A stretch of 61,869 nucleotides of DNA, the filler included, from Parachlamydiales bacterium (lineage in GTDB: Bacteria > Chlamydiota > Chlamydiia > Chlamydiales > Parachlamydiaceae), in NCBI GenBank assembly GCA_020051075.1. It is 4 parts of 4 records of this genome, joined end to end, with 100 filler letters (N's around TTAATTAATTAA, not from the genome) between each part and the next. Parts side by side here need not be neighbours in the genome. Positions count along the whole stretch, not along the records: positions 1 to 26,620 come from JAGVJP010000014.1; 3 more parts are not named here. One strand, 5' to 3'. The translations under genes and the position numbers were made by a program. The notes under the pieces were generated by a model that did no database searches, was not told where the DNA came from, and was given only the letters and a program-made list of their open reading frames with translations. Positions 963 to 40,805 of this stretch are shown piece after piece (position 1 is the stretch's first letter; each line of letters begins with the position of its first letter).

Positions 963-1028
963 TGACTAGATGCCGGTATTAGGTTCGATTAATTTTGATA
1001 TACTTCATCTTGCTAAAGCTGTCAAATG

Positions 1029-1067
1029 ATAGAAACACAGAGGCACAGATCTGTGTCTCTGTGTTTT
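1029..1067. repeat. Short palindromic REP-like repeat (ACACAGAGGCACAGA family)
   Basis: aaacacagaggcacagatctgtgtctctgtgttt; same motif at 17106-17352. Confidence 0.7.
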
Positions 1068-1114
1068 AATTGTACCCCGCCAACTTTAGAGCCTTGCAAT
1101 CCCACTTTCTTTTA

Positions 1115-1143
1115 TTGCATAAAGAAATAAAATGGTGTAATAT
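1115..1143 (+). promoter_or_regulatory. Putative sigma66 promoter
   Basis: TTGCAT-N17-TAATAT upstream of an AGGAG RBS and ATG 1174. Confidence 0.45.
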
Positions 1144-1173
1144 GCTGAACTGAAAATAAATAGGAGAAACTCT

Positions 1174-1602
1174 ATGATTGATACTGCTTTACGACAAATA
1201 GATCACTCTATTCTTGGACTTGTTGGAAGAGGGATCTATGATATTATACGAGTAGGATTAGAGCCTTCCACCGATTTCAAGATGGTTGAAATTGCACAAA
1301 ATATTTTTTCTGTTTTTCTTCTCCTTCATGTTCATAATTTTGCGGTATATAGCTTTGCCTTAGGGTTTATATTCAGTGATCAAGTTGCTTGGGTCGCCAA
1401 CAAAGTGAATACGGTTATCCTAGCGCAAAATACTTTCTTCAGAAGACATGTTTTTGTATTGGGAGGTGTTTTCTTAGCCTTAAAATTTTTACCTTCATCA
1501 ATGCATGTTGCAGCTCTCTATCTCGCTGCCAATCTAGGGGCAAATCTTGACATAAGCAGCCGCGCTAGACTTGAACAAATTCAGCCACAGCAGCAACAAT
1601 AG
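1174..1602 (+). CDS. Hypothetical membrane protein
   Basis: 142-aa ORF with RBS, several hydrophobic segments and a Gln-rich tail. Confidence 0.65.
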   Translation: MIDTALRQIDHSILGLVGRGIYDIIRVGLEPSTDFKMVEIAQNIFSVFLLLHVHNFAVYSFALGFIFSDQVAWVANKVNTVILAQNTFFRRHVFVLGGVFLALKFLPSSMHVAALYLAANLGANLDISSRARLEQIQPQQQQ

Positions 1603-1614
1603 CAGGAATAACGG

Positions 1615-2517
1615 TCAATCATTGCGCAGATGGCAGTTCTGAAAAGCAGCATGCAGTTGCTTGCTATTGACATGTGTGTACCGATCTGTTGTTCCTATGC
1701 TGGCATGTCCTAGCAACTCTTGAATCACACGCAGGTCTGCACCACCGTCTAAAAGATGTGTCGCAAATGAATGTCGGAAGGTGTGAGGAGAGATCAACTT
1801 AGTGATGCCGGCTTTTTTAGCATATTTTTTAACAAGTTTCCAAACTGAAATTCGATCGACAGGACGATTATTTTTGTCTAAGAATAATTCGTTAACTCCT
1901 TCTTCTTGAGGCCCATCTCGAAAAGCCAGATAGCGATCGATGGCTGCGAGAGCGGGGGTGCCGATCGGGACAAGCCTCTCTTTCCCCCCTTTGCCTCGAA
2001 TGCGGAGGTAGTGGTCGTCTACATCGCTGATTTTAAGGCGGCAGAGCTCTGAAACGCGCAGTCCTGAGCTGTACAAGACCTCTAAGATCGCCCGATCCCG
2101 CGCTCCGCTTTTTTTTGTCAGAACAGGTTGCATGAGCAGGGTTTCAATTTCATGGAGCGATAAAATGTTAGGAATCAGCTGCCAAATCTTCGGATTGTCA
2201 AGGAGTTTAGCAGGATTGATTGAGATCGCACCTTCTCTTTTGAGGAATTTAAAAAACACTTTAATCGCTGCTAAGGTCCTGCCGATGGAAGAAGAGGCGT
2301 AGCCCTGACTTTTCTTAGTCGAAAGAAAGTTGACAATATGGTGTTGAGTCACATCCTTCCAAGAGGTCATGTGATCGAGGGGGAGGGATGCAGCAAACGT
2401 TTGAATATCTCTTCTATAGGCATCGATGGTATGAGGAGAATACCCTTTTTCAGAAAGGAGATAAGAGAGAAATTCTTTGATCTCATCTGTATACCCGCAT
2501 CTAGTGTGTATAAACAT
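1615..2517 (-). CDS. xerD: Tyrosine recombinase XerD
   Basis: RDRAILEVLYSSGLRVSEL, GKGGKER, SPHTFRHSFATHLL, IQELLGHASIGTTDRYTH. Confidence 0.9.
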   Translation of the reverse strand: MFIHTRCGYTDEIKEFLSYLLSEKGYSPHTIDAYRRDIQTFAASLPLDHMTSWKDVTQHHIVNFLSTKKSQGYASSSIGRTLAAIKVFFKFLKREGAISINPAKLLDNPKIWQLIPNILSLHEIETLLMQPVLTKKSGARDRAILEVLYSSGLRVSELCRLKISDVDDHYLRIRGKGGKERLVPIGTPALAAIDRYLAFRDGPQEEGVNELFLDKNNRPVDRISVWKLVKKYAKKAGITKLISPHTFRHSFATHLLDGGADLRVIQELLGHASIGTTDRYTHVNSKQLHAAFQNCHLRND

Positions 2518-2525
2518 AGTTGCTT

Positions 2526-3023
2526 CTACATTAGTTTGAGCGCCAAAGACTTCTGTTTCTGATCGATTTGAGTTTGAGTGAGGTCGATGAGACGGATGGT
2601 GACGAATTCATCCTGTTTGGCAATTTCATAGAGGTGATAGTTTTTTCCACCTTCAGAGAATTCTTTTCTGAGGATGAGTTGGCGGGCATGTGCGAGGAAT
2701 AAACTCAAAACGAAGATTTCCACCTCGTCGGGTTCGGCATCTTTAAGCGACTGCTGCAAGAGGTGGAGAGCTCGTTCAACGCGATTGGAAGACTGCGGTC
2801 GTTCTTTTCGTTCAATCTTAGACTTCCAATAGCCCTGTGCTTCTTTGATGCTCTCTTGGGGAAGTTCAGCCCAGCAAGCCAGACAAAAATCGCGCCTGGT
2901 GACGGTTCTAGTTTCTGTTTCAATGAGGAGTGAAACGACTTCCATGTCAGGAATCAACCGCTCTCCTTTTGCAAAGCAGGCGGCATTCCGTTTAGGGATG
3001 TCGAGTTGAAAGAGTGAATTCAT
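2526..3023 (-). CDS. Hypothetical protein (co-oriented between pgi and xerD)
   Basis: 165-aa ORF tightly packed in the operon; Cys pair RRDFCLACW. Confidence 0.7.
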   Translation of the reverse strand: MNSLFQLDIPKRNAACFAKGERLIPDMEVVSLLIETETRTVTRRDFCLACWAELPQESIKEAQGYWKSKIERKERPQSSNRVERALHLLQQSLKDAEPDEVEIFVLSLFLAHARQLILRKEFSEGGKNYHLYEIAKQDEFVTIRLIDLTQTQIDQKQKSLALKLM

Positions 3024-3041
3024 AGCGGTGTCGTCAAATAG

Positions 3042-4667
3042 TTATAACCGGTCAAGATGTTTCAAGTAGGCTTCTCCTAGAGGATAGGAAGCCTTATCTT
3101 GGGTTCCTTGGTGTTTGCAAGCTAACTGGTTGATGATCTTGTTTGCTAAGACTTTTCCCAGTTGAACGCCTTCTTGATCAAAGGAATTAATATCCCAGAT
3201 GAAGCCGATAAAATCAACCTTATTTTCCCAAAACGAGAGGAGAGCGCCGAGCGAATAGGGGGTGAGGCGGTTTGCAAGAAGAATATGAGAGGGGCGGTTT
3301 CCAGGGGTAAATTTATTTAAATTATCAGTTTGATTGCCTAAAGCCAAACCAAGAGACTGTGCAAACATATTCGCAAGAAGTTTTTCTTGAGAGAATGTCC
3401 CCTGGACAAGCAAATCTTCTCCTAGTTGGCTTTCTTTATAGCCAATGAAGCAGACAGGAATAACGCTCGTGCCTTGATGAAGAAGTTGAAAGAATGAGTG
3501 CTGTCCGTTTGTTCCCGGCTCTCCCCACCAGATTGCCCCTGTTTCGAAATCAGTGAGAACACCTTTCTTATCGATCATTTTGCCGTTAGATTCCATACCG
3601 ACCTGCTGCAGGTGTGCCGGAAAGCGGTGAAGCGGCTGTGAGTAGGGGATAATTGCTGTCGTGGGATAATGCAAGAAATTATGATTCCAAACTTCAATCA
3701 GTGCTGCCAACAGAGGTAAATTTGTGAATAAGTCTTGTTGAAAGCAGGTTTTGTCCATGTCATGAGCTCCTCTCAGCAGTTCCCAAAACACATCAAAACC
3801 AAAGGCAAAAGAGAGGACGACACCTCCCACCATCGAAGTGGTGGAGTAGCGTCCGCCAATCCAATCCCACACATAGAACGTTTCCCTGTAGCGATGTTTA
3901 TTATCCATGGGGGTATTGGGCATCGTGATTGAGATGAAGTGGGAATGGGGGTTCAAATTTTCCGCTTCGAATTTTGCTCGGGCAATTTCTTCATTTGTTT
4001 CGGTCTCGAGGGTCGTGCCGGACTTAGAAATAACGACCACGAGGGTGCGTTTGAGGTTCACGTGTTTAAAGACTGAAGCGGCGTCGTCAGGGTCGACATT
4101 GGAGATGAAGTGAATTTTTCTTCCAGGCTTCAGGAGATATTCTAGAGCATAATAGTGAGCGCGAGGTCCGAGGTCTGAGCCTCCGATGCCGATCATCACC
4201 ATTTCGTCGAAGCTGTTTTCTTTCTCGATGTTTGCGAGGAAGGTCTTCAACTTATTGATTTCTTTCAGTGCTTCGCTGGCCGCTTCCTTGGCATTTTTTG
4301 CGGAACGGGGGCTGTCGAAGAAATCGCGGGTTGCCGTGTGCAGAGCTTTACGGTTCTCGGAAGAGGTGTGTTCAATAAAGTTCACGACTTCCCCATCTTG
4401 CATCTGCTCCATTTTTTGAAAAACCCGTTGTTCCTCAGCCAAGGATTTCAAGTTTGAAAGCACGTCATCGTTGATCTTCTCAGTGCCATAAAGAAGGGAA
4501 TAGCCGCATGCTTCAGCGCAGCAGTTGGCAATTCTCTCAGGGGTGAGCACTCCAGGTTTGGATAGATCAATGGGATTGAGTGCAAGGAGTTTGAGTTCTT
4601 TGGAATATTTATTTCCTTGGAAACTAGAGATTTTGTGTTCGCTCTTTTCCTTGACTGCTGGGGCCAT
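3042..4667 (-). CDS. pgi: Glucose-6-phosphate isomerase
   Basis: IGIGGSDLGP, SKSGTTLET, GGRYS, MESNGK, GTNGQHSFFQLLHQG, SFDQEGVQLGK. Confidence 0.97.
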   Translation of the reverse strand: MAPAVKEKSEHKISSFQGNKYSKELKLLALNPIDLSKPGVLTPERIANCCAEACGYSLLYGTEKINDDVLSNLKSLAEEQRVFQKMEQMQDGEVVNFIEHTSSENRKALHTATRDFFDSPRSAKNAKEAASEALKEINKLKTFLANIEKENSFDEMVMIGIGGSDLGPRAHYYALEYLLKPGRKIHFISNVDPDDAASVFKHVNLKRTLVVVISKSGTTLETETNEEIARAKFEAENLNPHSHFISITMPNTPMDNKHRYRETFYVWDWIGGRYSTTSMVGGVVLSFAFGFDVFWELLRGAHDMDKTCFQQDLFTNLPLLAALIEVWNHNFLHYPTTAIIPYSQPLHRFPAHLQQVGMESNGKMIDKKGVLTDFETGAIWWGEPGTNGQHSFFQLLHQGTSVIPVCFIGYKESQLGEDLLVQGTFSQEKLLANMFAQSLGLALGNQTDNLNKFTPGNRPSHILLANRLTPYSLGALLSFWENKVDFIGFIWDINSFDQEGVQLGKVLANKIINQLACKHQGTQDKASYPLGEAYLKHLDRL

Positions 4668-4768
4668 GGTTAACTCCTTTGCTGGAAGTGTTCCAGTGTT
4701 AAATTTTTACCATGACTTTTTCTTGATTTTCTCGCAAGAGGGATTCTTTGTTGAACACATCGATTGAT

Positions 4769-5116
4769 TTATTCTGTGAGAAATTCACCAAAATCGATGA
4801 TTTTAGAAAAAAAGCCACTTTTCTGTACCGACTCAGCCACTCCATTGACATGAATTAAGACTGGCCATACTGAAAGATTTTTTTGAGTTGAAAGACGCTT
4901 AATTTTGTCTTGAATTTCCTCAATGATCGATAATCCAATTTTATCTTTCGAAAATTTGATTTCACAAAGATAAAGGGAATTATACTTTGTTTGAACCATA
5001 TAATCGATTTGACATCCCTTATGGCTCTGTGTTCCTTTCTGAAAATATGGATTGTCAAAGACTACATTTTCAGGAGAGATATTGAGATGATCTTTTAAAT
5101 TTTTTCGATTATTCAA
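4769..5116 (-). pseudogene. C-terminal fragment of an AAA-ATPase / PD-(D/E)XK-like domain protein
   Basis: GCQIDYMVQ...LYLCEIKFS resembles the C-terminal domain of archaeal-type ATPases; no P-loop domain upstream. Confidence 0.6.
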
Positions 5117-5249
5117 GTTTGAGATATCTGAAAAGTATCACGAAATCAATAAAAATCAAATTTCGTGACAATTTTCATAGCATTTTAACGCAAAGGAGTA
5201 CAAGAGGCGCAAAGAGGGGGTGGAAAATCAAAAAGAGATATAGTCATTG

Positions 5250-5547
5250 CAGGATCACCAATTCGATCCATGTTGTAGACATGATTCAAGAAAGAAAAAC
5301 TGAATTGGTAGCGCCTGGATTAGATATCAATTTCGATTTGGTTTATGAAGTAAGCATTTTTGAAGGAAAGCTCTTTGTTATCGTACGTCATATCATGTTA
5401 GTGAATTTCAAAATCCATATCTTTGACCTGACGCCCCAGGCAACGACCCTTATCTTTATACACATCTTCCCATTGCTTGTTCGGGCAACGAGAATTACCC
5501 GTTTTTCTGTCGCTGCTACCGCAGCTCTTCATTTATCTGCATTTTGA
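5250..5547 (+). pseudogene. Remnant paralogous to the C-terminus of 6323..7987
   Basis: NSIHVVDMIQERKTELVAPGLDINFDLVYEVSIFEGKL aligns with NTIHIVDLIQRRKMDLVMPELDINYDLISEVKMIGGKL. Confidence 0.75.
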
Positions 5548-6051
5548 CCCCACGTTCCGGTCGCGGAGCTCCCTCCACGCCATACTTGTACCCACATCTT
5601 TTGAGTCGACCCTGGAAAGTCTTGTGCCGCCCTTTCAGGGCTCGCTATTTGGGGTTGAGCATCCCCAGGCATGACGGCCTGGGCTATGATATGCCAGCAC
5701 TTCGTGCTTTAGAAATGCCTCAAAAGGTGATGACCTATCTAAGTTAGAACAGAATGTTAGGCACGGGAGAAGATCAAAAGTCCTAAGAATCGGTAATTTC
5801 TAATATTTGAAGAGGATCTCAATAGGACTAAGAATAAGCATGCCCTAAAGCACGAAGTGCTGGCATATCATAGCCCAGGCCGTCAGGCCTGGGGATGCTC
5901 AACCCCAAATAGCGAGCCCTGAAAGGGCGGCACAAGACTTTCCAGGGTCGACTCAAAAGATGTGGGTACAAGTATGGCGTGTAGGGAGCTCCGCGACCGG
6001 AACGTGGGGTCAAGATGCAGACCAATCCAGAGCTGCGGTAGCAGCGACAGA
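5506..6051. repeat. Long inverted repeat: 207-bp arms 5506-5712 and 5845-6051, 132-bp spacer; contains a GCCCTTTCAGGGCT REP-like motif
   Basis: Direct reverse-complement comparison; near-identical except for a few mismatches, mostly at the outer end. Confidence 0.92.
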
Positions 6052-6322
6052 GGGGGCGAAAGTGATTAAAGTGAAAGTTAACAAAGCCAGATTTGCAAAT
6101 TATAGGTTTTTCTATCACAAGTCTCTCGAGAGATCTGTATAAAGATAAGGGAACGACCTTACCATTACCCATTCTCGCGACATCGAAATTATCGGGACAG
6201 TAGGTTAAATTGTTAAGCCTTTGAGATTAGGAGATAAACCCACTTTATGAGATATAATCCTTGCAGGATATTCGTGGAGAAGAGTAGAGTAGATTTTTTT
6301 CATTCATGAAGGACGCTCCATT

Positions 6323-7987
6323 ATGGCAGTTTCAACGACATTATTGGGAATATCATATTTTGCAGATAATCATCGATTAGAATTCCATGCTAAACCTTAC
6401 GGAGTAAGGGCGAAGCTCTGGAGGGATACGGTAAAAGTAGGCACATATCTTTTAGAAAATATTCCGAATATTGCTGCGATGACTTATGAAACCCTGCCTC
6501 TAAACGCTCTATCGCAAGTTTTCAGGTTTTTAACTTTACATCACGTGCAAATTCGAAGAGATGGTGTTGCTTTCACAGTTAAAAGAGTTCCATCTCCTAT
6601 TGGATCTCCAATACTTTCCCCAATCGAGTCCCCTCCACCTTTTGAGGATCCCCCTCATGATGCAGGGATAAGTGCAGAAGAACTTAATGAAGAGCTTGAG
6701 ATAATACGTAGTTTACAGCTTGGGCCAATTCCTCCTGAAGGTGCTCAAACTCAGGGACCCCGTATCTTGTCGGATGAGATCATCGCTCAGATTACGGAAT
6801 GTATGCTTAATCCACCTATCAGATTAGAAACTTTTGCTGCAGAAGCCGACATTGATGACCTTGCGCTTTTTTTTCCCCACCCCGCTCCATCTGAGCTTTT
6901 GCTAGACAATAACAAAATCGTACCCTTGATCACTTTAAAAGGGCCGTACGATGGGAGATTGCCCCGTTTAATCACAAATCAAAATCGTTGGACTGTTTCA
7001 TTTTGCTCTAGAAATAATCAATGTGTCTATGATTTCGAAGAAGCTTTTGCCGACACTCAACCCTATTTAAGTGCTGCTGTTTTGGCTTCGCACATGATCA
7101 TGGGAAGTAACGAGAGAATTGCCATTACTGCCGATGTATCTGGGTCGTTGAAAATATGGGATGTCAATCAGGTGGATCGATGTGAGATTGAAATTCCAAA
7201 TGTCTTCTTCTGCCATTGCCGAGTTGACGATGATGGCAATCAGTATGTCAATGAACTCATTTGTGATGATGAAATTGTCATAGGGGTCGAAAAAATTGCT
7301 GCGCTCAAACCAAATGGGGAGTTATTTATCTGGGACTTGCCAACGAGAGCGCTATCTCTCCATTTATCTGAAGAGCAGGTTTTCCAATACCAGCTCGCTT
7401 TTAGAGATATTGATGGAGATGACACTCCGTTCACCAATTTTTCATTTCATGATGATAGGATTCTTATTCAATCTTTCGAAAGGCAGGAAAGGACGGGGCG
7501 ATTCGTTCTACAATTATTTTATTTAGAACTCAATCCCATTAGTATGAGGCAACACCTACTTGCACCAGAAGAACTGTTTGTAGGCATGCATCAAGGAAGA
7601 GTGGTAACGATCTTTGATCAAAGGCGGTTGTATTTTTCCGAACTTTGTAGCAATGCTCCAAGAACGTTTGTTATGAACTTAGGATTTGATGTGAAAAAAA
7701 TCTATAGGTGTGGAAATGAGATTGTTTTCGTTAGCACTGTCAATACAATTCACATTGTCGACCTCATTCAACGGAGGAAAATGGATTTGGTTATGCCAGA
7801 GTTAGACATCAATTATGATCTGATTAGTGAAGTCAAAATGATTGGAGGAAAGCTCATTTTTTTGGAGTCTCGTGTAGTGAAGTTTAACATCTACATCTTG
7901 GAATTGATACCTCCAACAACAGATGCTGCGGCTAATGTTTCCAGTCCAGGTTCTTCCATTTCTTCAACTTTAACACTCGGTGAGTGA
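6323..7987 (+). CDS. Hypothetical protein with Pro-rich linker and WD40-like beta-propeller C-terminus; effector candidate
   Basis: 554 aa; PSPIGSPILSPIESPPP; ADVSGSLKIWDV and GELFIWDL WD-like motifs. Confidence 0.6.
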   Translation: MAVSTTLLGISYFADNHRLEFHAKPYGVRAKLWRDTVKVGTYLLENIPNIAAMTYETLPLNALSQVFRFLTLHHVQIRRDGVAFTVKRVPSPIGSPILSPIESPPPFEDPPHDAGISAEELNEELEIIRSLQLGPIPPEGAQTQGPRILSDEIIAQITECMLNPPIRLETFAAEADIDDLALFFPHPAPSELLLDNNKIVPLITLKGPYDGRLPRLITNQNRWTVSFCSRNNQCVYDFEEAFADTQPYLSAAVLASHMIMGSNERIAITADVSGSLKIWDVNQVDRCEIEIPNVFFCHCRVDDDGNQYVNELICDDEIVIGVEKIAALKPNGELFIWDLPTRALSLHLSEEQVFQYQLAFRDIDGDDTPFTNFSFHDDRILIQSFERQERTGRFVLQLFYLELNPISMRQHLLAPEELFVGMHQGRVVTIFDQRRLYFSELCSNAPRTFVMNLGFDVKKIYRCGNEIVFVSTVNTIHIVDLIQRRKMDLVMPELDINYDLISEVKMIGGKLIFLESRVVKFNIYILELIPPTTDAAANVSSPGSSISSTLTLGE

Positions 7988-9167
7988 ATCGCAGAAGATG
8001 ATAAGACAAGAAAAGATTACCGTTATTGGTTTGGGATATGTGGGCCTTCCCATGGCCTGTATTCTAGCTAGTGCAGGTTATCAGGTAACTGGTGTAGACA
8101 TTGATCATGACGTTGTTGCCCGCGTTCAATCGGGTAGTATAAATAATCCAGAACCTAATCTTCAAGAGCTTTTGAGCAATGTGATTGACACAGGTAATCT
8201 TACAGCGTCCATCTCCGTTTCTCCTGCAGATATCTACATCGTTGCTGTTCCCACCCCTATTGATCCTAGCCGTCAGCCTGATATTTCCTGTGTCAACGCA
8301 GCGATAGATACCATTACGCCTCATCTGAAACCAGATGATTTAATTCTGATCGAGTCAACGTGTCCGATAGGTACGACCGAAGCTGTTGCACGCAAAGTAC
8401 GGCTAATGTGTCCTCAGGCTTATGTCGCCTATTGCCCTGAGAGGATTCTTCCTGGAAATATTCTTTGGGAATTGGTTCACAATGATCGGGTCATTGGAGG
8501 TGTAGATGATGCCTCAACATCTATTGCTTCAAGATTTTATCGAACATTTGTCCTTGGTGAGGTGCTATCGAGTGATGCAAGGACAGCGGAAGCCGTTAAA
8601 CTTATTGAGAATACTTATCGAGATGTCAACATTGCCTATGCTAATGAGTTATCGATGATCGCCGACCATTTGGCCCTTGATGTGAATGAGTTGATCCGAT
8701 TGGCGAATCGGCATCCCCGTGTACAAATTCTTCAACCTAGTCCCGGTGTTGGCGGCCATTGCATTGCGATAGACCCGTGGTTTTTGATCTCATCAGCTCC
8801 TCATCTTGCTAAGCTGGCTACCCATGCAAGGGAGGTGAATCTAACAAAAACCGATTGGGTCATTGAAAAAGTGCGAAAAGCCATTAAAGAAAGCGGAGCG
8901 AATGTCATCGCTTGTTTGGGTTTAACCTATAAAGCTGATGTTTCAGATATTAGAGAATCACCAGCGATGGCTATTGTAAAAAAGCTAGAACATGAAATCG
9001 ACCTCCTTCGTTATGATCCCTATCATACTGAAGATGAAAATTTATATGACATCCTCGCACGTGCACATATTGTTGTGGGACTAGTCCCGCATCGGGAATT
9101 TTTGACGATTCCCTCACACTATCTTGCAGGTAAAATTGTTCTCGATTTTGCAGGGGTGTTTAAGTGA
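7980..9167 (+). CDS. wecC: UDP-N-acetyl-D-mannosamine dehydrogenase (nucleotide-sugar dehydrogenase); start may be ATG 7998
   Basis: GLGYVG Rossmann motif, ESTCPIGTT, YCPERILPG, KLIENTYRDVNIAYANE, catalytic GGHCIAIDP. Confidence 0.92.
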   Translation: MSESQKMIRQEKITVIGLGYVGLPMACILASAGYQVTGVDIDHDVVARVQSGSINNPEPNLQELLSNVIDTGNLTASISVSPADIYIVAVPTPIDPSRQPDISCVNAAIDTITPHLKPDDLILIESTCPIGTTEAVARKVRLMCPQAYVAYCPERILPGNILWELVHNDRVIGGVDDASTSIASRFYRTFVLGEVLSSDARTAEAVKLIENTYRDVNIAYANELSMIADHLALDVNELIRLANRHPRVQILQPSPGVGGHCIAIDPWFLISSAPHLAKLATHAREVNLTKTDWVIEKVRKAIKESGANVIACLGLTYKADVSDIRESPAMAIVKKLEHEIDLLRYDPYHTEDENLYDILARAHIVVGLVPHREFLTIPSHYLAGKIVLDFAGVFK

Positions 9168-10264
9168 AATCGGTATTAACGATCGTTGGTACAAGGCCTG
9201 AAGCGATAAAACTCGCTCCTGTACTCGCCGCTCTGAGTTCCAATACTCGCTTGCGGAACATGATTTGCCTGACTAGACAGCACACTGATCTCATGGACCC
9301 GTTTTTTGAGAAAATGGGTGTCAGAGCAGATTATCAATTTGAACATTGCGAAGCAAGAGGCTCTCTTCATGACAGTTCTTCTCATATCCTAAAGCAATGC
9401 GGGACTGTTTTCGCTGATGCCAAACCCGATATCATTTTAGTCCAAGGAGATACAACGACGGCATTCATCGCTGCCCTTGCTGCATTTTATTCATCCATTC
9501 CTATCGCACACGTTGAAGCAGGATTGAGAACGGGTCAACTCTCCTCACCTTGGCCAGAAGAAGGTCATAGGGTACTTATCGATCGACTTTCAACCTATTT
9601 TTTTGCTCCAACAGAACAAGCGAAAAAAAACCTTCTTGCTGAAGGAGTCTCAGACCATAAAATTTGGGTAGTAGGAAATACTTCCATCGATGCAATACGA
9701 TTAGCTCAAAGCTTCGCAACAAGAAAAATTGATCATGGGTGTCGCAAAATTGCTGTGACAGTTCATAGAAGAGAAAACCATGGAGATCCATTAAGAGAGA
9801 TCTGTACTGGTTTGAGGGTCATTGCTGAGTTATATTCTGATGTTAGAATCCAATTTATTGTGCACCCGAATCCTTCGATAGCGATTCCAGTGACAGAGAT
9901 GATATCAGGAGTTCAAAACATAGAGTTAATAGAACCGATGGATCACATTTCATTTATTAATATTCTTGAAGAGAGTGCATTCATCATTACAGACTCTGGA
10001 GGGATTCAGGAAGAAGCTCCTTTTTTAGGCAAGCCCGTCCTCATTGTTCGAGAGACAACAGAAAGATCAGAATGTCTGGAAGCTGGAACTGCACGGTTAA
10101 TCGGTACAAAAGCGGTCGACATCATCATCAACTGTAAAGAATTACTTGAAAATCAGGATGTCCTGACAGCGATGTCAAAAGTGCATTATCCTTTTGGTGA
10201 TGGCTATGCAGGGGAGAGGATTGCGAGGATATTAGAAGCAGAGTTATCCAAGGTCTCCTTATGA
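9164..10264 (+). CDS. wecB: UDP-N-acetylglucosamine 2-epimerase (non-hydrolysing)
   Basis: GTRPEAIKLAP, VQGDTTT, HVEAGLR, HRREN, TDSGGIQEEAP. Confidence 0.95.
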   Translation: MKSVLTIVGTRPEAIKLAPVLAALSSNTRLRNMICLTRQHTDLMDPFFEKMGVRADYQFEHCEARGSLHDSSSHILKQCGTVFADAKPDIILVQGDTTTAFIAALAAFYSSIPIAHVEAGLRTGQLSSPWPEEGHRVLIDRLSTYFFAPTEQAKKNLLAEGVSDHKIWVVGNTSIDAIRLAQSFATRKIDHGCRKIAVTVHRRENHGDPLREICTGLRVIAELYSDVRIQFIVHPNPSIAIPVTEMISGVQNIELIEPMDHISFINILEESAFIITDSGGIQEEAPFLGKPVLIVRETTERSECLEAGTARLIGTKAVDIIINCKELLENQDVLTAMSKVHYPFGDGYAGERIARILEAELSKVSL

Positions 10265-11373
10265 CAGCTTCTAACATTCTCCTCTTTGCAGATCGTCTCC
10301 CTCCTCTCATTGGCGGCATGGAAATGCATGCAGGATATTTTATTGAATATTTCACCGATCATCCAAAATATCCGCTCTCTGGGGTGATCACGAAGGATTG
10401 TGAGGGAGAAGACTATCTTCTATCACATGGTCTAATCAATATTCACGATTTACCAAATCTCTTCGATCCGACAGTGATCTTCTTTAATAGCGGGCGATGG
10501 ATTGAGGAATTTGAAGTCATACGGAAGATTTTTCCAGGAGCAATTTTCATCTATCGCACAGGTGGAAATGAAATTATCAAAGCCCCGCTCATTCGGAATC
10601 AAATCTCCGATCATGCGTTTAGACAAGCTTATTGGGTTGAGACTTTAAATCGCACGATCGACTTGTTGATCACAAACTCTGATTTCACGGAAAGGCGTCT
10701 TAGGGATGTAGGGATAGCCTGCCCATTCAGCTGCCTTGTAGGGGGCGTGAACGCTGCTGCCTTAAGGCCGTCAACAGCAACTGATAACAGCAATAAAATA
10801 ACCATTTTCTGCGGAGCACGCTTTGTTCCATATAAAAACCACCTTTTGTTGTTATCTGTCATCCAACAGCTTATCTTGCGTGGCCTCCAGCTTAGCCTTC
10901 GCCTTGCTGGAGATGGTCCTTTGTTAGAGAGAGCAAGGGAACAAGTGACTAAAGATAAGCTGACTTCTGTTGTCGAGTTTCTTGGCGTTCTTGACAATGA
11001 ACGCACCTGTCAGGAGATTTCGGGGGCTCATATCTATATGCAGCTTAGCGAAGACACCTTCACAGAAGTATTAGGAGGGTCGTATATTCACTCTGAATGT
11101 ATGGGCCGTTCTATTTTGGAAGCTTTAACAGCTGGCACCTTCATCATTGCAGGGAAGAGCGGCGCTCTACAAGAGATTGTTGCCCAAGGCCAAGGGGTGC
11201 TGGTAGAATTCGATGATCTAGAGCGGATGACAGATAAGATCGAGCTGGCGATCAAAAACATCCCTCCAAGGCCCCCTTTTTCTGATCAATATTGTTGGTC
11301 AAAATTATTTTATCGTTATGAACAGTTGATGAGAAATCTAGATGAAAATATTGGTCGTGACAGAAAAGTGTAG
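10261..11373 (+). CDS. Glycosyltransferase family 4 (GT-B)
   Basis: PPLIGGMEMH N-terminal motif, RFVPYKN, AGDGP, EX7E motif ECMGRSILE. Confidence 0.85.
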   Translation: MTASNILLFADRLPPLIGGMEMHAGYFIEYFTDHPKYPLSGVITKDCEGEDYLLSHGLINIHDLPNLFDPTVIFFNSGRWIEEFEVIRKIFPGAIFIYRTGGNEIIKAPLIRNQISDHAFRQAYWVETLNRTIDLLITNSDFTERRLRDVGIACPFSCLVGGVNAAALRPSTATDNSNKITIFCGARFVPYKNHLLLLSVIQQLILRGLQLSLRLAGDGPLLERAREQVTKDKLTSVVEFLGVLDNERTCQEISGAHIYMQLSEDTFTEVLGGSYIHSECMGRSILEALTAGTFIIAGKSGALQEIVAQGQGVLVEFDDLERMTDKIELAIKNIPPRPPFSDQYCWSKLFYRYEQLMRNLDENIGRDRKV

Positions 11374-12994
11374 TCCAATCAAAAGCCAGCGAGATGGCGG
11401 GGCAAGATTGGTAGAAACGATCCAACGCTCTTTTGGACATTCTGTCAGTATCTTGCAATTTAGTCAAAGCGAAAATTCGTCCGCAACATGGCAGTTTGAC
11501 TATCCCATCGATCATTGCGACCGGTTTGAAAGGCGGCTTGCCAATGCGAATTTCATCGCAGAAAAAGTCAAAGCTCTCGAAGAGGGGTTTACTCATGTCG
11601 TCTTCATTCACCTATCGATGCAGTTTGGTCTGGTCAATACCCCCTTGAGAAACGACCTCATCATTTGGACTTTCCCTATGCTTCTTACCCCTTCGTATCT
11701 GGCTTCTGGAGAAACTGTCCCCGCTCCCTATACTGAAATGGAACGATTGACTTTAGCCATTTCTCATAACATCATCACTCCCAGCCATCTTGAGCGTCGC
11801 CAACTCATGGAATTTTATTCTGTTCCACAAGAATGCATTCGAGTGATTCCTAGAGGGATTGATACGCAATGGATTGTTCCAAAAGTCCGAACTGTCGAGT
11901 ACCATCCCAAATTCTGTGCCTTGGGGAGTATAAAGCCTCAGAAAAACACTGTAGGACTGATCCGCCTCTTTGCAAAAATTCGTGAGGCAATTCCTGGGTC
12001 CACTCTTCGAATGATCGGACCCGTCCAAAACTCTGACTATTACGCTGCTGTTCTTGAAGAGATAAAACGATGCGGAGTGGATGAAGCGGTTGAACTCTTA
12101 GGATATGTTCCGCCAAATGAGCTTTCTTCAGTCCTCGATGATGTGCATCTACATTTGTCGACATCTCTCTGTGAAACATTTGGACGTTCGATTTTTGAAA
12201 CCCTTGCTTCAGGGCTGCCTAATGTCGCAAGAGCTTCAGGGAATGCTGCTGCTGAATTTCTACAAGGCTTTCCCTATTCGCGATTTTCAGATCATGACAA
12301 CGACATTTTACAAGCGATTCAAGATATCCTTGCAGATTTACCAAAGCTTTCGGCGATGGCTTGTGAAATCGGGGAGCTCTACGACGATACACGACTTTCT
12401 CAACTGCTCTTGGCTGAGCTTTGCCATAAGGACTCTATCGGTATCTGTGATTTTGATGGGACTCTTTTTCATAAAGATGATCCTCAACGAACGAAGAGAT
12501 GTATGGATGCTTTCCGAAACTATCCAATCAGGGTGATTTGCAGTGCGCGTGCTATTGAGGACTTAATTGAAAAAATGCAGTCTCATCAACTGGAGGCAGA
12601 CTGGATTGTGGGATGCAGCGGAGCTGTCGTGGCTAATGGAAAAGGGGAGGTTCTCTGGTATACTCCTTTGAATCCAGCTGATCATGATCATTTGAAGGGG
12701 CTTCTTCCACAAGCTAACCCGATAGAAATGGATGGGAAGGTGTTACAGATGGCTGCTCCAGCAGAGGTGCTGCCAACTTTTTCGGGATTGCGTATTGAAA
12801 TCTATCAGGGCATGGCGTTTATTGGACATTGGGAAGCATCGAAGCTGCATGCCGTTCATCGTCTTCTGCGTCATATAAACTGGCTAGGACGAGTCTCCGT
12901 CTTTGGCGATGGCCCATATGATGCGCAGCTCATAACATTTTTTGACGGAATTTTTCTCTCTAACAATCTCAACAATGAGGTGGTCTATGTCTGA
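11342..12994 (+). CDS. GT4 glycosyltransferase fused to a C-terminal HAD-IIB phosphatase
   Basis: GT4 motifs VIPRGID, KPQKN, ETFGRSIFE; HAD motifs DFDGT, CSAR, SK, GDGPYD. Confidence 0.85.
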   Translation: MKILVVTEKCSPIKSQRDGGARLVETIQRSFGHSVSILQFSQSENSSATWQFDYPIDHCDRFERRLANANFIAEKVKALEEGFTHVVFIHLSMQFGLVNTPLRNDLIIWTFPMLLTPSYLASGETVPAPYTEMERLTLAISHNIITPSHLERRQLMEFYSVPQECIRVIPRGIDTQWIVPKVRTVEYHPKFCALGSIKPQKNTVGLIRLFAKIREAIPGSTLRMIGPVQNSDYYAAVLEEIKRCGVDEAVELLGYVPPNELSSVLDDVHLHLSTSLCETFGRSIFETLASGLPNVARASGNAAAEFLQGFPYSRFSDHDNDILQAIQDILADLPKLSAMACEIGELYDDTRLSQLLLAELCHKDSIGICDFDGTLFHKDDPQRTKRCMDAFRNYPIRVICSARAIEDLIEKMQSHQLEADWIVGCSGAVVANGKGEVLWYTPLNPADHDHLKGLLPQANPIEMDGKVLQMAAPAEVLPTFSGLRIEIYQGMAFIGHWEASKLHAVHRLLRHINWLGRVSVFGDGPYDAQLITFFDGIFLSNNLNNEVVYV

Positions 12995-13910
12995 ATCCTA
13001 TTATAAAGGTTACTGGATGGTGACAAACCGATGTAATCTCAATTGCGGCTACTGTGTCCTTGAAAATGCCCCTCACCAACGCAAAGCAGAGCTTGATCTG
13101 AATGCGAAAAAGGAATTGGTCTCGCATTTATATCATCAACTAGGTTTTCGCCGTCTCACGCTCTCAGGGGGAGAAGTGCTAATCATCGGGAAGAAGCCCC
13201 CATCTGATTTTATTGAGCTCCTTCGCCATATTAGGACGTTTCGTTCTGCCGACCCTGCAAAAAACTTGGAAATCGAACTCTACACCAATGGAACATACCT
13301 TGATGACAACGTTGCGTGTGAAATGGAGGGTGTTGTCGATCTGGTTGCAATTACAATTGATAGCGCCGACAATAATTTTTTGACCGATATTGGAAGAAAT
13401 AATGGGCGATTTAAAAATTATTACGAAAATATCATCCGGGTTTGTGGAATCCTTGCTAACAGAGGCATAGAATTAAAACTCCACAGCGTGATCGGACAAA
13501 AAAATCACCTCACACTTCCTGGAGAGGTCTCATCAATTTTAGATGCTATTGAAAAGGCTTCTGCAGGGGTGTCAGCTTGGAAATTTTATCAGTATATGTC
13601 ATACGATGCTCCTGAAAAAGATAAATTTCATGCGATTTCGCCGGAGCTCTATCAAAAATTTAAAGAGGAAACTGAGGAGGCTTTAACAGGACGTAATGTC
13701 CGTCTGCATTTTAAGGACAATGAGGAAATGAACGCGTCGTTATTTAACATCCTATCCTATGGGAATGCCCAATATATGCGCGCGAATGACACCTGGTCAA
13801 CAAGCCAGCGGACTGGCGACCTCCGGACATACAATTCCATGTCAGAGTTGTTTGCTAAGCATGAAATCAATGAAACATTATTCCGTCGATTTCACGAGGT
13901 GTTGCGATGA
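12987..13910 (+). CDS. Radical SAM enzyme, viperin (RSAD2)-like
   Basis: CNLNCGYC, LSGGE, TNG, ITIDS, IGRNNG, LKLHSVI, WKFYQ, DNEEMNAS; GAGGTGG RBS before ATG 12987. Confidence 0.85.
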   Translation: MSESYYKGYWMVTNRCNLNCGYCVLENAPHQRKAELDLNAKKELVSHLYHQLGFRRLTLSGGEVLIIGKKPPSDFIELLRHIRTFRSADPAKNLEIELYTNGTYLDDNVACEMEGVVDLVAITIDSADNNFLTDIGRNNGRFKNYYENIIRVCGILANRGIELKLHSVIGQKNHLTLPGEVSSILDAIEKASAGVSAWKFYQYMSYDAPEKDKFHAISPELYQKFKEETEEALTGRNVRLHFKDNEEMNASLFNILSYGNAQYMRANDTWSTSQRTGDLRTYNSMSELFAKHEINETLFRRFHEVLR

Positions 13911-14623
13911 ACAGCTTGATTGTCACTCTTGATATTGATTGGGCCTCTGAGCCCGCCATAGAGCAAACGCTTGATTTTCTGATCGACCGGCAAATTAAGC
14001 CTGCTGTCTTCGTCACGCATCGATCTCCTTGTGTGGAAGCGCTGATAGAGGAGGTCGATGTGGGTCTTCATCCCTATTTCGGACGAGATTCCTCCCATGG
14101 ATCGACCATCTCCGAAGTCGTCAAAACGGTGATGGATTTTCCCCACAATCTCCCGGCATTTCGCTGTCACAGATTTGCTGTGTGTAATTCGTCCCGTCAA
14201 GCGATGTCTGAAGCAGGCATGCTGATCTCATCTAACGTCTGCACAGACTTATCCATTGTTCCCCCTTTCAGAGATCGGTTTGGAATGCTTGAAGTCCCGA
14301 TCTTTATGGAAGATGGTGGCTATTTATGGCAGAAACACCCCCTGGAAATCAACGACTCTTTATTGGCTGCACTGATGCAGGAGGGGGTTAAAGTGATCAC
14401 TATCCATCCGATGCATTTTGCATTAAACACTCCTCATTTTGACTTTATGTTTGAGATTAAACAATCGATGAGCCGCGATGAATGGAATACTCTGTCTAAA
14501 GCTACTCTGAAAAGCCTTCGATGGCCTGGAAGAGGGATTGCTGACTTTCTGATTGAACTGCTACAGCTTCCGCTTCCGGCAGCGCGCTTACGCGATTTAA
14601 TACAGCATAATCATCGAAGATGA
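13907..14623 (+). CDS. Polysaccharide-deacetylase-like protein (WbmS/NodB-like fold)
   Basis: TLDIDWA, AVFVTH, VGLHPYF, FRCH, PIFMED, TIHPMH. Confidence 0.75.
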   Translation: MNSLIVTLDIDWASEPAIEQTLDFLIDRQIKPAVFVTHRSPCVEALIEEVDVGLHPYFGRDSSHGSTISEVVKTVMDFPHNLPAFRCHRFAVCNSSRQAMSEAGMLISSNVCTDLSIVPPFRDRFGMLEVPIFMEDGGYLWQKHPLEINDSLLAALMQEGVKVITIHPMHFALNTPHFDFMFEIKQSMSRDEWNTLSKATLKSLRWPGRGIADFLIELLQLPLPAARLRDLIQHNHRR

Positions 14624-15266
14624 CAGCTTCGATAGCAAAATTGAATCGGTCAATTTCAAGGCAGCGAGCGAAGTCTTCGACAGGATATTGCCACTGATCT
14701 TCAGAGAAAAAACATTTTCCCGAACACTCTTTAAGTTCTGACAAATAAGGAGAGATATCGATTTTATCACCGCGGAACAACGCTTCGATATATAGCGCGC
14801 AAAGGTCGTCTTCTAACGAGGGGGTGATCCCTTCATGCCCCATTGGGAGAATCGTCAACTCAGGATTTGTCAGCGTTTTAATGTGTTGTACTGTGGCATC
14901 AGCATTGATAAAACCAGCTGCTAATATCACATCGGCATTTTTTGAAATGAGGATCCCTCTGGCCCCTGCCTCAGTTCTATGGAACACGGTGCGGTTTGTG
15001 AGGTCAATCTCACTCACGCGAGTAGGTGAATTTGGGATCGTATAGGACGCGAATGAACCTAGCTCTGGCTTCCCTATCAAGATAGCGTGAGGAAAGGGCT
15101 GTGCGAGTCGAGCAATTACTGAGCTTCTTGTTGTTAGGTTGTACGTTATGGGATTGTCTTCTAGAACATAGCATGCAGTTGTAAACGCACGAAAGACGTC
15201 AATAACGAGTGTAACATGCGTTTTTGCGACTCTTGTGTTTATTTGCGGTAAAAAAAGGGGAGACAT
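14502..15266 (-). CDS. 2-phosphosulfolactate phosphatase (ComB)-family protein
   Basis: VIDVFRAFTTA, NSP, TEAGARG, FINADA, SLEDDLCA; start set at ATG 15266 to avoid overlap with the upstream gene. Confidence 0.8.
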   Translation of the reverse strand: MSPLFLPQINTRVAKTHVTLVIDVFRAFTTACYVLEDNPITYNLTTRSSVIARLAQPFPHAILIGKPELGSFASYTIPNSPTRVSEIDLTNRTVFHRTEAGARGILISKNADVILAAGFINADATVQHIKTLTNPELTILPMGHEGITPSLEDDLCALYIEALFRGDKIDISPYLSELKECSGKCFFSEDQWQYPVEDFARCLEIDRFNFAIEAVIFDDYAVLNRVSALPEAEAVAVQSESQQSLFQAIEGFSE

Positions 15267-15276
15267 GAATAGAGAT

Positions 15277-16338
15277 CTACTTATTGACGATGGTGATGAA
15301 AGCGGAGAGGGTGATCTCATGAGCAAGGCCAATCAGCTGGCCTGTGGAGGAGACGGCAGTCCCGCCGGCAGCGCAGAACCCTTGGAGCTTCCGCTTTCCC
15401 GTGACATCGAGACTATCAGGACAGTAGATCAAATAGTCAAGCCCGTGCCATTGGGAGATTAACTCACTTTCTGCAATGAGTCGGAAGGGGAGTTCAAGGG
15501 CTTGTAGCTGCTTTACAGCTTCTTCGAGGCATGCATAGTGCGAGGGGAGGTAGCATCTGCTGGGAGGGATGCAGATAGCGATTGCAGCCGGCTCAACGGG
15601 GAAAGGGAGAGTGGTGTTGTCGACCCCAGCGTAGCCTATTGGTGAGGCTCGACCCCAGCCCAAAGAAGGAAATGGGAGCGTATGAGAGCAAAGCGCCAAA
15701 GAAAAACGTTCGAATTTCTCTGGATTAAGGACAAGGAGCTGGGCAAGGACAGATTTTGCAAAAGGAGAAATATCCAAAAAAAGGTAAATCGGCAGCGAGT
15801 CGGGGATGCGAGACACGAGAAGAGTCATGTACTGAACACAGACATCTCTGCAGAAGAGAATTTTGTGGAGAGGATGGAGCTCTTGATGAGAAATTCCCGC
15901 TTCTTTTAACCATTCATTCAATTGTTCGGTGTGAATGGGATCCCAACGGAGTTGTTCAGAAAAATTGGCTCTCCCTCGATAGATCGAAAGCCCTGCAGTC
16001 TTATCTTTGAATTCCTTCCACAGGGTATCTCTAAAGTGTTCGACAGCTAGAGAAAGGGAAAGAAACTGGCTTTGGATTTCGAGAGAGTGGACCAGATGTT
16101 CAAACAACCCGAGTTCGATGTTCCACAAAATCCAGTATCCTGCTTTTGTTGCTTTTTCAGCTAGCTTACGCTGGTTTTGCCAATCTAAATCGCTGTCCAG
16201 CCCTCCATCGAGGGTGATCGTCACCGCATCAAAATCAGGCAGTTGCTGTCCTGTCCAATCTCCTTCGTAAATGCGGAGGGAGGGGACGATGATCTGTTCT
16301 TCAATGGCATTGTTGTCTTCATCGGTCATGAGGGGCAT
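15277..16338 (-). CDS. Hypothetical protein downstream of trmB
   Basis: Long ORF coupled to the trmB stop; C-terminal WHGLDYLI...KRKLQGFCAAGG. Confidence 0.7.
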   Translation of the reverse strand: MPLMTDEDNNAIEEQIIVPSLRIYEGDWTGQQLPDFDAVTITLDGGLDSDLDWQNQRKLAEKATKAGYWILWNIELGLFEHLVHSLEIQSQFLSLSLAVEHFRDTLWKEFKDKTAGLSIYRGRANFSEQLRWDPIHTEQLNEWLKEAGISHQELHPLHKILFCRDVCVQYMTLLVSRIPDSLPIYLFLDISPFAKSVLAQLLVLNPEKFERFSLALCSHTLPFPSLGWGRASPIGYAGVDNTTLPFPVEPAAIAICIPPSRCYLPSHYACLEEAVKQLQALELPFRLIAESELISQWHGLDYLIYCPDSLDVTGKRKLQGFCAAGGTAVSSTGQLIGLAHEITLSAFITIVNK

Positions 16339-17014
16339 CCATTTTTTGATAGGAATGATAGTGGATTGTTTTTCCTTTTTCCCGCCAGAGATCTTCGAAA
16401 TAGGAGGTCCCATAGCCTGGATAGTCGGTAACATAATAAGGAGAAGGAAATATTGAACGGAAGCCTGGCGTAGAATTCAATGTTTGAATCAGAGCTGAAG
16501 AATAACGCTCGTCATCGGTGACGATGGTCAAGAGTCCTCCCACCTTTAAAATTCGATGAAGCTCCTGGATGAATCGGGGCTGGATGATGCGGTGTTTCGC
16601 ATGGCGGGTTTTCGGCCACGGGTCGGGGAAGTTGATATAGATATTTTTGATGCTGGCAGTGGGAAAGTAGTTCTCCGTCACACAGTGCCCTTCGCCGCAA
16701 ATTCCAACCAAGTTTGGAAGGTTGTCGTTTTTGATTTTTGACCATATTTTTCTGATCCGTTCAAATTTTTTTTCGACAGCAATCCAATTGTCGTTCTGAT
16801 ATTGTTTCGCTTGGCTCGCGATCCAAGCGCCATTGCCGCTGCAATACTCAATAGAGACAGGGTTTGCATTGTTGAATAAGAGAGGGTGGTCCCAACCAGG
16901 GAAAGTAAAAGAGGTGTATTCGCTCATGAGGGGAGGGACATACCAAATCCGATCTTCGATCATGATTTGGCGTTCAGTCCGCGAGAATGGGGAGATGAGG
17001 TTTTTGGGTTTCAT
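16319..17014 (-). CDS. trmB: tRNA (guanine-N7)-methyltransferase
   Basis: IEYCSGNG, NFPDPWPKTRHAKHR, VTDD, SYFEDLW. Confidence 0.93.
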   Translation of the reverse strand: MKPKNLISPFSRTERQIMIEDRIWYVPPLMSEYTSFTFPGWDHPLLFNNANPVSIEYCSGNGAWIASQAKQYQNDNWIAVEKKFERIRKIWSKIKNDNLPNLVGICGEGHCVTENYFPTASIKNIYINFPDPWPKTRHAKHRIIQPRFIQELHRILKVGGLLTIVTDDERYSSALIQTLNSTPGFRSIFPSPYYVTDYPGYGTSYFEDLWREKGKTIHYHSYQKMDAPHDR

Positions 17015-35127: not shown

Positions 35128-35153
35128 GATAAATCCTTATGATGTTCTCAGAG

Positions 35154-39861: not shown

Positions 39862-39908
39862 ATTTAGTGGAAGATAGGTCATGATTAATCACAGGAGCAC
39901 CTCTTAGA

Positions 39909-40793: not shown

Positions 40794-40805
40794 TTGCGAG
40801 TTGTA

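Follow-up and report, generated by a model that had tools for sequence, protein, structure and literature searches.

The described enzymes closest to the subject of this analysis, by sequence and by fold, are the viperins. In the parts of the viperin literature covered, enzymes with this fold act as dehydratases of nucleoside triphosphates (NTPs), and any link to other genes is one to kinases. Kinases adjoin 12% of bacterial viperins according to the available part of 10.1101/2023.09.13.557418, and the word 'glycosyl' is absent from its main text as available. A reaction of viperin with UDP-glucose in vitro is cited in the reference list of PMC9642334. A radical S-adenosylmethionine (SAM) enzyme that shares this fold, has a remodelled active site and is invariably linked to glycosyltransferases is encoded in a Parachlamydiales genome (assembly GCA_020051075.1), in a stretch of 61,869 nucleotides that was analysed as a whole and is called here the window. 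Its gene belongs to a cassette that also encodes a WecC-like dehydrogenase, the epimerase WecB, two glycosyltransferases of family GT4 (GT4a and GT4b, the latter with a HAD phosphatase domain), an N-deacetylase and a ComB-like phosphatase. The cassette is horizontally mobile and under purifying selection, and we judge, at slightly better than even confidence, that it encodes a mobile pathway that yields a small soluble amino-sugar conjugate in the cytoplasm, proceeds via phosphorylated intermediates and includes tailoring by radical dehydration.

Parts of this gene set resemble other known systems. In the apramycin (AprD4), blasticidin (BlsE) and tunicamycin (TunB) clusters, a radical SAM enzyme stands beside a glycosyltransferase, a deacetylase, a phosphatase and an ATP-binding cassette (ABC) exporter; unlike these, the cassette has no aglycone, acyl or aminotransferase genes, and BlsE and DesII lie far behind viperin as matches to its radical SAM fold. 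The first steps of mycothiol and bacillithiol synthesis also have a GT4 enzyme followed by deacetylation, and sucrose- and trehalose-phosphate synthase-phosphatase systems have a GT-B enzyme fused or linked to a HAD-IIB phosphatase, a likeness of architecture only. Unlike these thiol and synthase-phosphatase routes, the cassette has two glycosyltransferases and a radical step. The enterobacterial common antigen, teichuronic acid and Bordetella wbm O-antigen loci share the WecB/WecC donor supply and the WbmS-like deacetylase (PDB 3hft), but the cassette lacks their initiating transferase, WecG-type glycosyltransferase, Wzx, Wzy and ligase. It also differs from aminocyclitol aminoglycoside clusters, since no cyclitol-forming enzyme and no aminotransferase are among its conserved genes. 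In kasugamycin synthesis, UDP-ManNAc formation by the UDP-GlcNAc 2-epimerase KasQ is the first step and opens a small-molecule amino-sugar pathway (available part of PMC8869731); the cassette, unlike that pathway, has no cyclitol supply or aminotransferase and has two GT4 enzymes, two phosphatases, a dehydrogenase and a radical SAM enzyme, KasQ being the kas gene covered by the comparison. Polysaccharide-looking sugar genes lead to a small molecule in the pyrrolamide sugar route (PMC12983305, available part), and AprD4 is named a diol dehydratase in the part available of PMC13598754.

No description of the cassette was found in the literature searched, which lay mostly outside subscription journals and comprised articles without their supplements, the viperin tables among these. 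The combination of genes, the enzyme family with the viperin fold and the occurrence across endosymbionts thus appear to be undescribed, and radical SAM sugar-tailoring clusters are already known.

A viperin fold in a separate enzyme family

The CX3CX2C motif is invariant in the cassette radical SAM enzymes. The top NCBIfam model of the window protein is the viperin model NF038283, with 93 bits against a cut-off of 180, and two enzymes from the second clade of loci (see below) reach 91.7 and 89.3 bits, also below it. The structural model (predicted local distance difference test, pLDDT, of 90) matches mouse viperin with Z 26.7, a root-mean-square deviation of 2.4 and 260 aligned positions, so that the same closed-barrel fold is shared over nearly the whole chain; the template modelling (TM) scores for the viperin fold are 0.73/0.77. 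Other radical SAM folds lag behind, namely SuiB (Z 21.6), MoaA (18.5), DesII (18.1) and BlsE (17.9).

The viperin motif is given as N-phi-H-X4-CX3CX2C-F in the available part of PMC11218377. It occurs in 0/120 close homologues and 0/15 tree members of the cassette family; as a control, the strict pattern is found in 10/17 above-cut-off viperins, and its N and H are each present in 15/17 of them, compared with 0/15 cassette enzymes. In a FastTree phylogeny over 276 columns, which does not fix the root or the sister relation, the cassette enzymes form one clade (support 0.97) outside the 17-member viperin clade (1.00). Because the cut-off, motif and clade tests all fail, the enzyme is not a viperin; it has the viperin fold and belongs to a separate family. 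The description of the enzyme as viperin-like, given in an earlier note on this DNA, thus stands for the fold and falls for the score cut-off, the motif and the clade.

The family is tight. It contains 330 proteins at E 1e-10, the top 120 of which share at least 66% identity, and in the 50% library its full-length members score at least 215 bits, with the next full-length protein at 88 bits. Among the proteins below this gap, viperin is the top NCBIfam model for 43 of the 51 scanned, with 17 above the cut-off. A separate observation concerns the sub-cut-off viperin-like proteins P0150-P0243, in many of which C-W-N replaces N-phi-H while the columns for lysine and tyrosine are retained; they are another unnamed viperin-adjacent group.

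The active site combines retained and replaced positions. Agreement with the viperin consensus is seen at K164, K199 and Q202, and all members of the cassette family have R55. Where viperins have N, H, N, R and Y, the corresponding columns are Y9, M11, H166, variable 197 and L252. We take the two retained lysines to be those that bind phosphate in viperin and the replaced tyrosine column to be the catalytic one. For viperin, PMC9642334 names, in its available part, only 'a conserved tyrosine'. This residue pattern suggests that the substrate would be phosphorylated and other than a plain NTP. Unlike viperin, the cassette enzyme is always tied to glycosyltransferases, and its cassette has no kinase. 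Since the family is discrete, with a rebuilt active site and a fixed glycosyltransferase link, it likely extends the viperin scaffold to a new substrate.

Database searches gave no closer assignment. The ESM Atlas search with the enzyme returned only unnamed radical SAM clusters, and the viral-protein fold search only generic radical SAM proteins (query TM at most 0.60). PADLOC 2.0, applied to 7 proteins with ComB outside the scan, matched only pVip profiles to the radical SAM enzyme (E 1e-26) and gave weak Rossmann matches for WecC, and the cassette fits no anti-phage system gene set of PADLOC 2.0. Neither NCBIfam nor PADLOC has a model for the family beyond the sub-cut-off viperin match.

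Gene content, recurrence and mobility of the cassette

The six open reading frames (ORFs) of the order wecC-wecB-GT4a-GT4b/HAD-radical SAM-deacetylase are intact and co-oriented within 7980-14623 (Table 1), as the earlier note had described, and they overlap by 4 bp (wecC/wecB), 4 bp (wecB/GT4a), 32 bp (GT4a/GT4b), 8 bp (GT4b/radical SAM) and 4 bp (radical SAM/deacetylase). The unit is larger than the six genes recognised in that note, which overlooked a seventh: the ComB-like gene, convergent with the deacetylase gene and overlapping its 3′ end by 122 bp. The resulting cassette is self-contained and 7.3 kb long. Its contig corresponds to window positions 1-26620; beyond 26620, the window consists of three other contigs joined by N spacers, which are not its neighbourhood.

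Table 1. Features of the cassette and its insertion site (window positions)
Feature	Position	Strand	Basis
WecC-like UDP-N-acetylhexosamine 6-dehydrogenase, optional member	7980..9167	+	GTG start, alternative ATG 7998; Pfam; NF008286; TIGR03026; 25/47 loci
WecB, non-hydrolysing UDP-GlcNAc 2-epimerase, optional member	9164..10264	+	TIGR00236; 32/47 loci including fragments
GT4a, retaining GT-B glycosyltransferase, strongly conserved acceptor domain, core	10261..11373	+	PF00534; 47/47 loci; fold
GT4b with C-terminal Cof-type HAD phosphatase, glycosyltransferase part core	11342..12994	+	Pfam; motifs; 47/47 loci
Radical SAM enzyme, viperin fold, family outside viperins, core	12987..13910	+	CX3CX2C; model; fold; tree
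WbmS-like (NodB-type) N-deacetylase, core	13907..14623	+	PF22537; PDB 3hft; 47/47 loci
ComB-like (2-phosphosulfolactate phosphatase family) phosphatase	14502..15266	-	PF04029; 33/35 clade-1 loci
Inserted region with cassette, between pgi (3042-4667) and conserved 384-aa gene (15277-16434)	4668..15276		flanks adjacent in relatives
Decayed copy (76%) of 15389-15473, possible insertion scar	6165..6249		repeat search; blastn 78% over 78 nt

The GTDB scan with the radical SAM alignment gave 75 pattern matches and from these 47 loci (labelled with L numbers), which were chosen by the radical SAM enzyme alone. GT4a, GT4b and the deacetylase were present in all 47. Because the cluster was found again in 47 loci, its recurrence is far above chance. 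In a sample of the same phylum, the radical SAM enzyme occurs in 8 of 400 genomes scored, GT4a in 8 of 401 and a close ComB type (at least 47% identity, E at most 1e-68) in 8 as well, these being the same 8 genomes for all three, the source genome included; the other 25 ComB-positive genomes of the 401 carry only distant copies (at most 35%). The radical SAM enzyme is absent from 46/46 genomes of the same family.

The loci fall into two clades. Clade 1 comprises 35 loci with the gene order of the window, and 22 of these are labelled as endosymbiont lineages: 11 chlamydiae, 6 Rickettsiales/Holosporales, 1 Cardinium, 2 Mycoavidus, 1 Legionellaceae and 1 Francisellaceae. Its remaining hosts include Myxococcota, Longimicrobium, Phycisphaerales and unplaced Proteobacteria. 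Clade 2 comprises 12 loci with shuffled order, from Bacteroidota, Beggiatoaceae, Firmicutes, Mollicutes and one archaeal bin. The host labels therefore span Gram-negative bacteria, Firmicutes and Mollicutes/Acholeplasma, that is, different envelope types.

The sugar-nucleotide genes are the variable part of the set. With fragments counted, wecB was matched in 32/47 loci, and wecC in 25/47, so that both are optional members; with wecC missing from many loci, the proposal in the earlier note of ManNAcA as a building block is left unsupported. WecB passes TIGR00236 (402.6 against a cut-off of 210). The WecC-like protein has the Pfam domains PF03721/00984/03720, and its top NCBIfam model is that of UDP-ManNAc dehydrogenase, NF008286, with 416.8 bits and thus below the cut-off of 459; TIGR03026 is passed (365 over 190), and TviB (148) and the UDP-glucose dehydrogenases (91-138) score lower. 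In genomes without an intact cassette wecB, a wecB was found elsewhere in 9/9 distinct genomes and in a tenth (L032), a weak result given a control positive in 10/14; WecC above the cut-off was found elsewhere in only 4/10 genomes tested. As a side observation, wecB of the Mycoavidus locus L039 is only a fragment, and its genome has its own wecB-wecC pair.

The phosphatases are retained throughout, in changing forms. The HAD domain of GT4b keeps DFDGT and GDGPYD, and in clade 2 the Cof-HAD is a separate Hydrolase_3 gene or is fused to GT4a. The ComB-like gene is present in 33/35 clade-1 loci, the contigs of the remaining two ending inside the deacetylase gene, and in 10/12 clade-2 loci it is replaced by a HAD_2 phosphatase (8 by Pfam; L046 and L055 by clustering). 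At least one phosphatase is found in every locus: L036 has ComB and no HAD, and L061 and L063 have the Cof-HAD and no second phosphatase. In L054, HAD_2 and the radical SAM enzyme form one 496-aa frame without stops. This fusion and the exchange of ComB for the unrelated HAD_2 tie the radical step to a phosphorylated compound. Apart from this, L059 shows a single 1294-aa frame (11612-15496) that joins the Cof-HAD, both GT4 enzymes and WecB. The deacetylase matches PF22537 (84.6 over 27), and none of the cassette proteins is a predicted membrane protein, the top 19-residue hydropathy of 1.88 falling at the WecC Rossmann motif.

The concatenated tree was built from the four core genes of 43 loci and the window, with L051 and L060 (frameshifted) and L023, L029 and L033 (truncated) omitted. 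Host phyla are intermixed in it: Mycoavidus is nested with Rickettsiaceae (support 1.00), and the window copy is placed, with weak support (0.73), together with those from Legionellaceae, Francisellaceae and Holosporales. Pairwise identities follow those of the radical SAM enzyme (Spearman 0.84 for GT4a, 0.81 for GT4b and 0.91 for the deacetylase), and this fits movement of the cassette genes as one unit. Of nine pairs tried, four were informative for dN/dS, with values of 0.04-0.46 over all genes; L045/L046, L045/L062 and L055/L056 were set aside for dS below 0.03 (ratios at most 1.25), and L056/L057 and L061/L063 for saturation. The near-identity (dS at most 0.025) of the cassettes of L045, L046 and L062, which come from two Beggiatoaceae records and one Pacearchaeota bin, reflects either a very recent transfer or a binning error.

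Known vehicles were also searched. The plasmids of PLSDB hold no relative of the radical SAM enzyme, and the GenBank phages no relative of GT4b-HAD, in both cases at E 1e-20. IMG/VR gave 3 loci, one with a full clade-2 cassette (L063) and two with weak, unrelated radical SAM proteins. In L063, the whole cassette (985-10878) stands right behind two serine recombinases.

Proposed product and competing explanations

The conjugate would be a pseudo-di- or trisaccharide or a sugar-nucleotide derivative, and its most likely use is chemical defence or interaction with the host. On family-level knowledge, WecB and WecC would convert UDP-GlcNAc to UDP-ManNAc and UDP-ManNAcA, host genes being able to substitute for them. 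GT4a and GT4b would attach sugars to a small phosphorylated acceptor through two alpha-glycosidic bonds. The viperin-fold enzyme would act by hydrogen abstraction on a phosphorylated intermediate, either a sugar or a nucleotide, and, with water loss, give a deoxy or unsaturated sugar. Such dehydration is modelled on viperin and the diol dehydratase AprD4 and is suggested by the fold and the two retained lysines; the chemistry may differ from that of viperin, the Tyr and His columns being replaced. The Cof-HAD and the ComB or HAD_2 phosphatase would remove phosphate, and the deacetylase would free an amine. In about half of the clade-1 loci, a linked exporter would release the product; none stands beside the window copy.

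A small molecule is preferred because a soluble phosphatase is constant, the phosphatase is swapped and fused to the radical SAM enzyme, membrane enzymes are absent, the set is portable between envelope types and the exporters are exchangeable. The glycosyltransferases point in the same direction less clearly. The EX7E motif is kept in both, and GT4a has 49 invariant columns across 26 aligned rows. The closest folds to the GT4a model (pLDDT 92) are BshA (Z 31.8), sucrose-phosphate synthase (30.9), PimB' (30.6), MshA (30.3) and HepE (29.6); of these, BshA, sucrose-phosphate synthase and MshA are transferases of small-molecule pathways and are counted for a small product, and the ranking leans towards small acceptors and is not decisive. 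PDB sequence matches of both enzymes are weak and mixed, with no donor or acceptor assignable. The sucrose-phosphate synthase-phosphatase logic proposed in the earlier note survives as the GT-HAD architecture; TIGR02472 gives 12.2 against a cut-off of 576 on GT4a, and GT4b has no match to it among those listed. The BshA/MshA models score 19-36 against cut-offs of 274-463.

The surroundings of the loci bear on the export and the fate of the product. The clade-1 scan covered the two nearest ORFs on each side (103 proteins), with farther flanks for L024 and L040 only, and the clade-2 Pfam scan covered 52/87 flanking ORFs. Transposases, integrases, resolvases and toxin-antitoxin genes are frequent neighbours, as are housekeeping genes. 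No flippase, polymerase, Wzm/Wzt or initiating transferase was found in the cassette, in the nearest clade-1 flanks or in these 52 clade-2 ORFs. An exporter stands beside the cassette in 16/35 clade-1 loci (ABCB in 13, an ABC-2 trio in 2, EamA in 1), the fused ABCB adjoining it or being one gene away (11 by Pfam, L026 and L039 by similarity). An FtsX-type ABC pair 2 kb upstream of the L054 cassette, on the other strand and behind a two-component system, was excluded from this count. When one such ABCB was compared with the 400 phylum genomes, three candidates being scored per genome, the best four (50-100%, the genome of the query included) came from cassette genomes and the next seven (43-48%) did not. 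The source genome has a 35-48% ABCB relative on another contig, among repeat-protein genes. The statement of the earlier note that no flippase, polymerase or ABC exporter is nearby therefore applies to the window locus, not to the family.

Several findings weigh against a small exported molecule, and most of them lend themselves to envelope modification, an explanation that we regard as unlikely. According to it, the GT4 enzymes put ManNAc(A)-type sugars on a glycolipid, a lipid-linked oligosaccharide or the lipopolysaccharide (LPS) core, the deacetylase adds positive charge, the radical SAM enzyme produces a deoxy sugar and an ABCB resembling MsbA/PglK turns the finished product to the outer face, where it masks phage or host receptors or repels cationic peptides. 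All sugar genes of the cassette, including WecB/WecC, GT4 and WbmS-like genes, are common in polysaccharide and other glycan loci; the nearest structure to the deacetylase is an O-antigen enzyme (PDB 3hft, E 1.4e-10), and PimB', with its lipid acceptor, is level with sucrose-phosphate synthase and MshA as a fold match of GT4a, whose only PDB sequence matches are PimB'/PimA. Surface-glycan genes border two clade-1 loci, L024 (GT4s, a heparinase-like gene and Wzx ~6 kb beyond comB) and L040 (GT9, GT4), and a stand-alone initiating sugar-phosphate transferase (PF02397) is present elsewhere in the genome. The MsbA-class ABCB of 13/35 clade-1 loci could flip a glycolipid, judging by a class that also holds glycolipid flippases, and its top NCBIfam models are MsbA-type and glucan exporters, far below cut-off. 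There is no exporter at the window locus, at 19/35 clade-1 loci or at any of the 12 clade-2 loci. The conserved genes also include no aminotransferase or cyclitol-forming gene, and inositol-1-phosphate synthase (PF01658) was not found in the genome, in a search whose control was positive in 6/14. On the other side, no initiating transferase, Wzx, Wzy or ligase lies in the cassette or the nearest flanks of 33/35 clade-1 loci, and PF01943 has no match in the whole genome; soluble phosphatases, which a lipid-linked route does not need, are always kept, and the same enzymes occur across hosts with very different envelopes. Five ABCBs score 173-184 with the PglK model (cut-off 1000) and 338-371 with the MsbA model (cut-off 602), all exporter models staying below cut-off. 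Consistent placement of homologues in LPS or capsule loci, named in the earlier note as the observation that would speak against it, was thus not found, glycan genes bordering only 2/35 clade-1 loci. Its soluble product is backed by the soluble phosphatase, the absence of membrane proteins and the varied envelopes, and is left with a lipid-linked competitor through the class of the ABCB.

Two further explanations are held to be improbable. An intracellular antiviral role, rather improbable in our estimate, would have the radical SAM enzyme produce a dehydrated analogue of a nucleotide or nucleotide sugar, with the other enzymes decorating or recycling it, and the product would block the replication of phages or, if exported, of host viruses. 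Its appeal lies in the closeness of the viperins, in the two retained lysine columns and in a clade 2 without exporter, and defence genes flank some loci: a PADLOC scan of the 87 clade-2 flanking ORFs, run without a control for mobile DNA near defence genes, found them at 3/12 loci (L047 Dnd/Pbe and AbiE, L059 Wadjet, L061 PDC-S37/Hhe) and also at L063, the generic ATPase and kinase matches at L054 being discounted, and L057 is flanked by a NACHT protein. The enzyme, however, fails the viperin tests, the cassette has no nucleotide kinase, 9/12 clade-2 loci have no convincing defence neighbour, and viperins act alone, which leaves six sugar enzymes to explain. The other explanation, a housekeeping-type product, would be a protective low-molecular-weight solute or protein glycosylation by the GT4 pair, and we consider it very doubtful. 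The logic of mycothiol, bacillithiol and mannosylglucosylglycerate synthesis combines a GT4, a phosphatase and a deacetylase; BshA and MshA are among the top GT4a folds, the profile matches of GT4b include MshA, BshA and Gtf1/Sdg-type enzymes, and ComB-family enzymes act on 2-hydroxy-acid phosphates. Such a product is hard to reconcile with the patchy spread (8/400 phylum genomes), the mobile context and the linked exporters, and the cassette has no cysteine ligase and no conserved target protein; the radical SAM enzyme would also be left unexplained.

Insertion site, accompanying features and biological meaning

The cassette of the window lies in a 10.6-kb insertion. Its flanks, pgi and the 384-aa gene, adjoin in 7/11 relative loci, and the other four, short loci show no pgi. 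The sequence from which the decayed copy in Table 1 derives lies inside the 3′ part of the 384-aa gene. The island is not marked by its GC content (0.444 vs 0.431), and scans for promoters (22 vs 18.0 ± 4.2) and terminators (13 vs 8.5 ± 2.8) stayed near chance. Wzx, Wzy and ABC families are absent among the scanned ORFs of the cassette contig, whose pgi, xer, map, queA and ruvB genes were identified from translations, outside the family scan.

Other features of the island stand apart from the cassette. An inverted repeat of 207 nt (97%, spacer 132 nt) at 5506-6051 has related pieces on many contigs (53 blastn matches) and looks like a miniature mobile element. The 554-aa ORF at 6323-7987 (+) matches no Pfam family, its leads in the Atlas (below 0.9) are F-box/WD40 proteins, and it may be a secreted effector; its C-terminal part recurs as a decayed copy at 5218-5445. 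It was considered as a cassette member and rejected, as 0/47 loci match it.

Additional genes accompany single loci elsewhere. In Mycoavidus (L037 and L039, 2796-6701), a single-module nonribosomal peptide synthetase (C-A-T-TE) is found just upstream of the cassette, and three proteobacterial loci (L038, L043, L053) share a 168-198-aa ORF right after comB, with no convincing Pfam family. On a different contig of the window, 31201-36989 (-) carries co-oriented genes for a GMC oxidoreductase, an alpha/beta hydrolase, a type III polyketide synthase, a methyltransferase and an FAD-dependent oxidoreductase, a predicted second small-molecule cluster of this genome. A different contig also encodes three tandem collagen-repeat proteins (38947-41873, +), one with a BclA-like C-terminal domain.

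The cassette crosses Chlamydiota, Rickettsiales, Holosporales, Cardinium, Mycoavidus and Legionellales-type hosts, and in small symbiont genomes purifying selection maintains it. Such upkeep and spread point to a benefit in intracellular life, so far unnamed. One improbable, speculative form of this benefit is that the viperin-sister enzyme acts in a sugar pathway leading to a dehydrated, glycosylated nucleotide-like compound, and that symbionts of protists, insects and fungi trade the cassette and export the compound against viruses of the host or of themselves. If an exported antiviral compound of this kind were true, the cassette would represent a chemical antiviral symbiosis and a new class of natural products.

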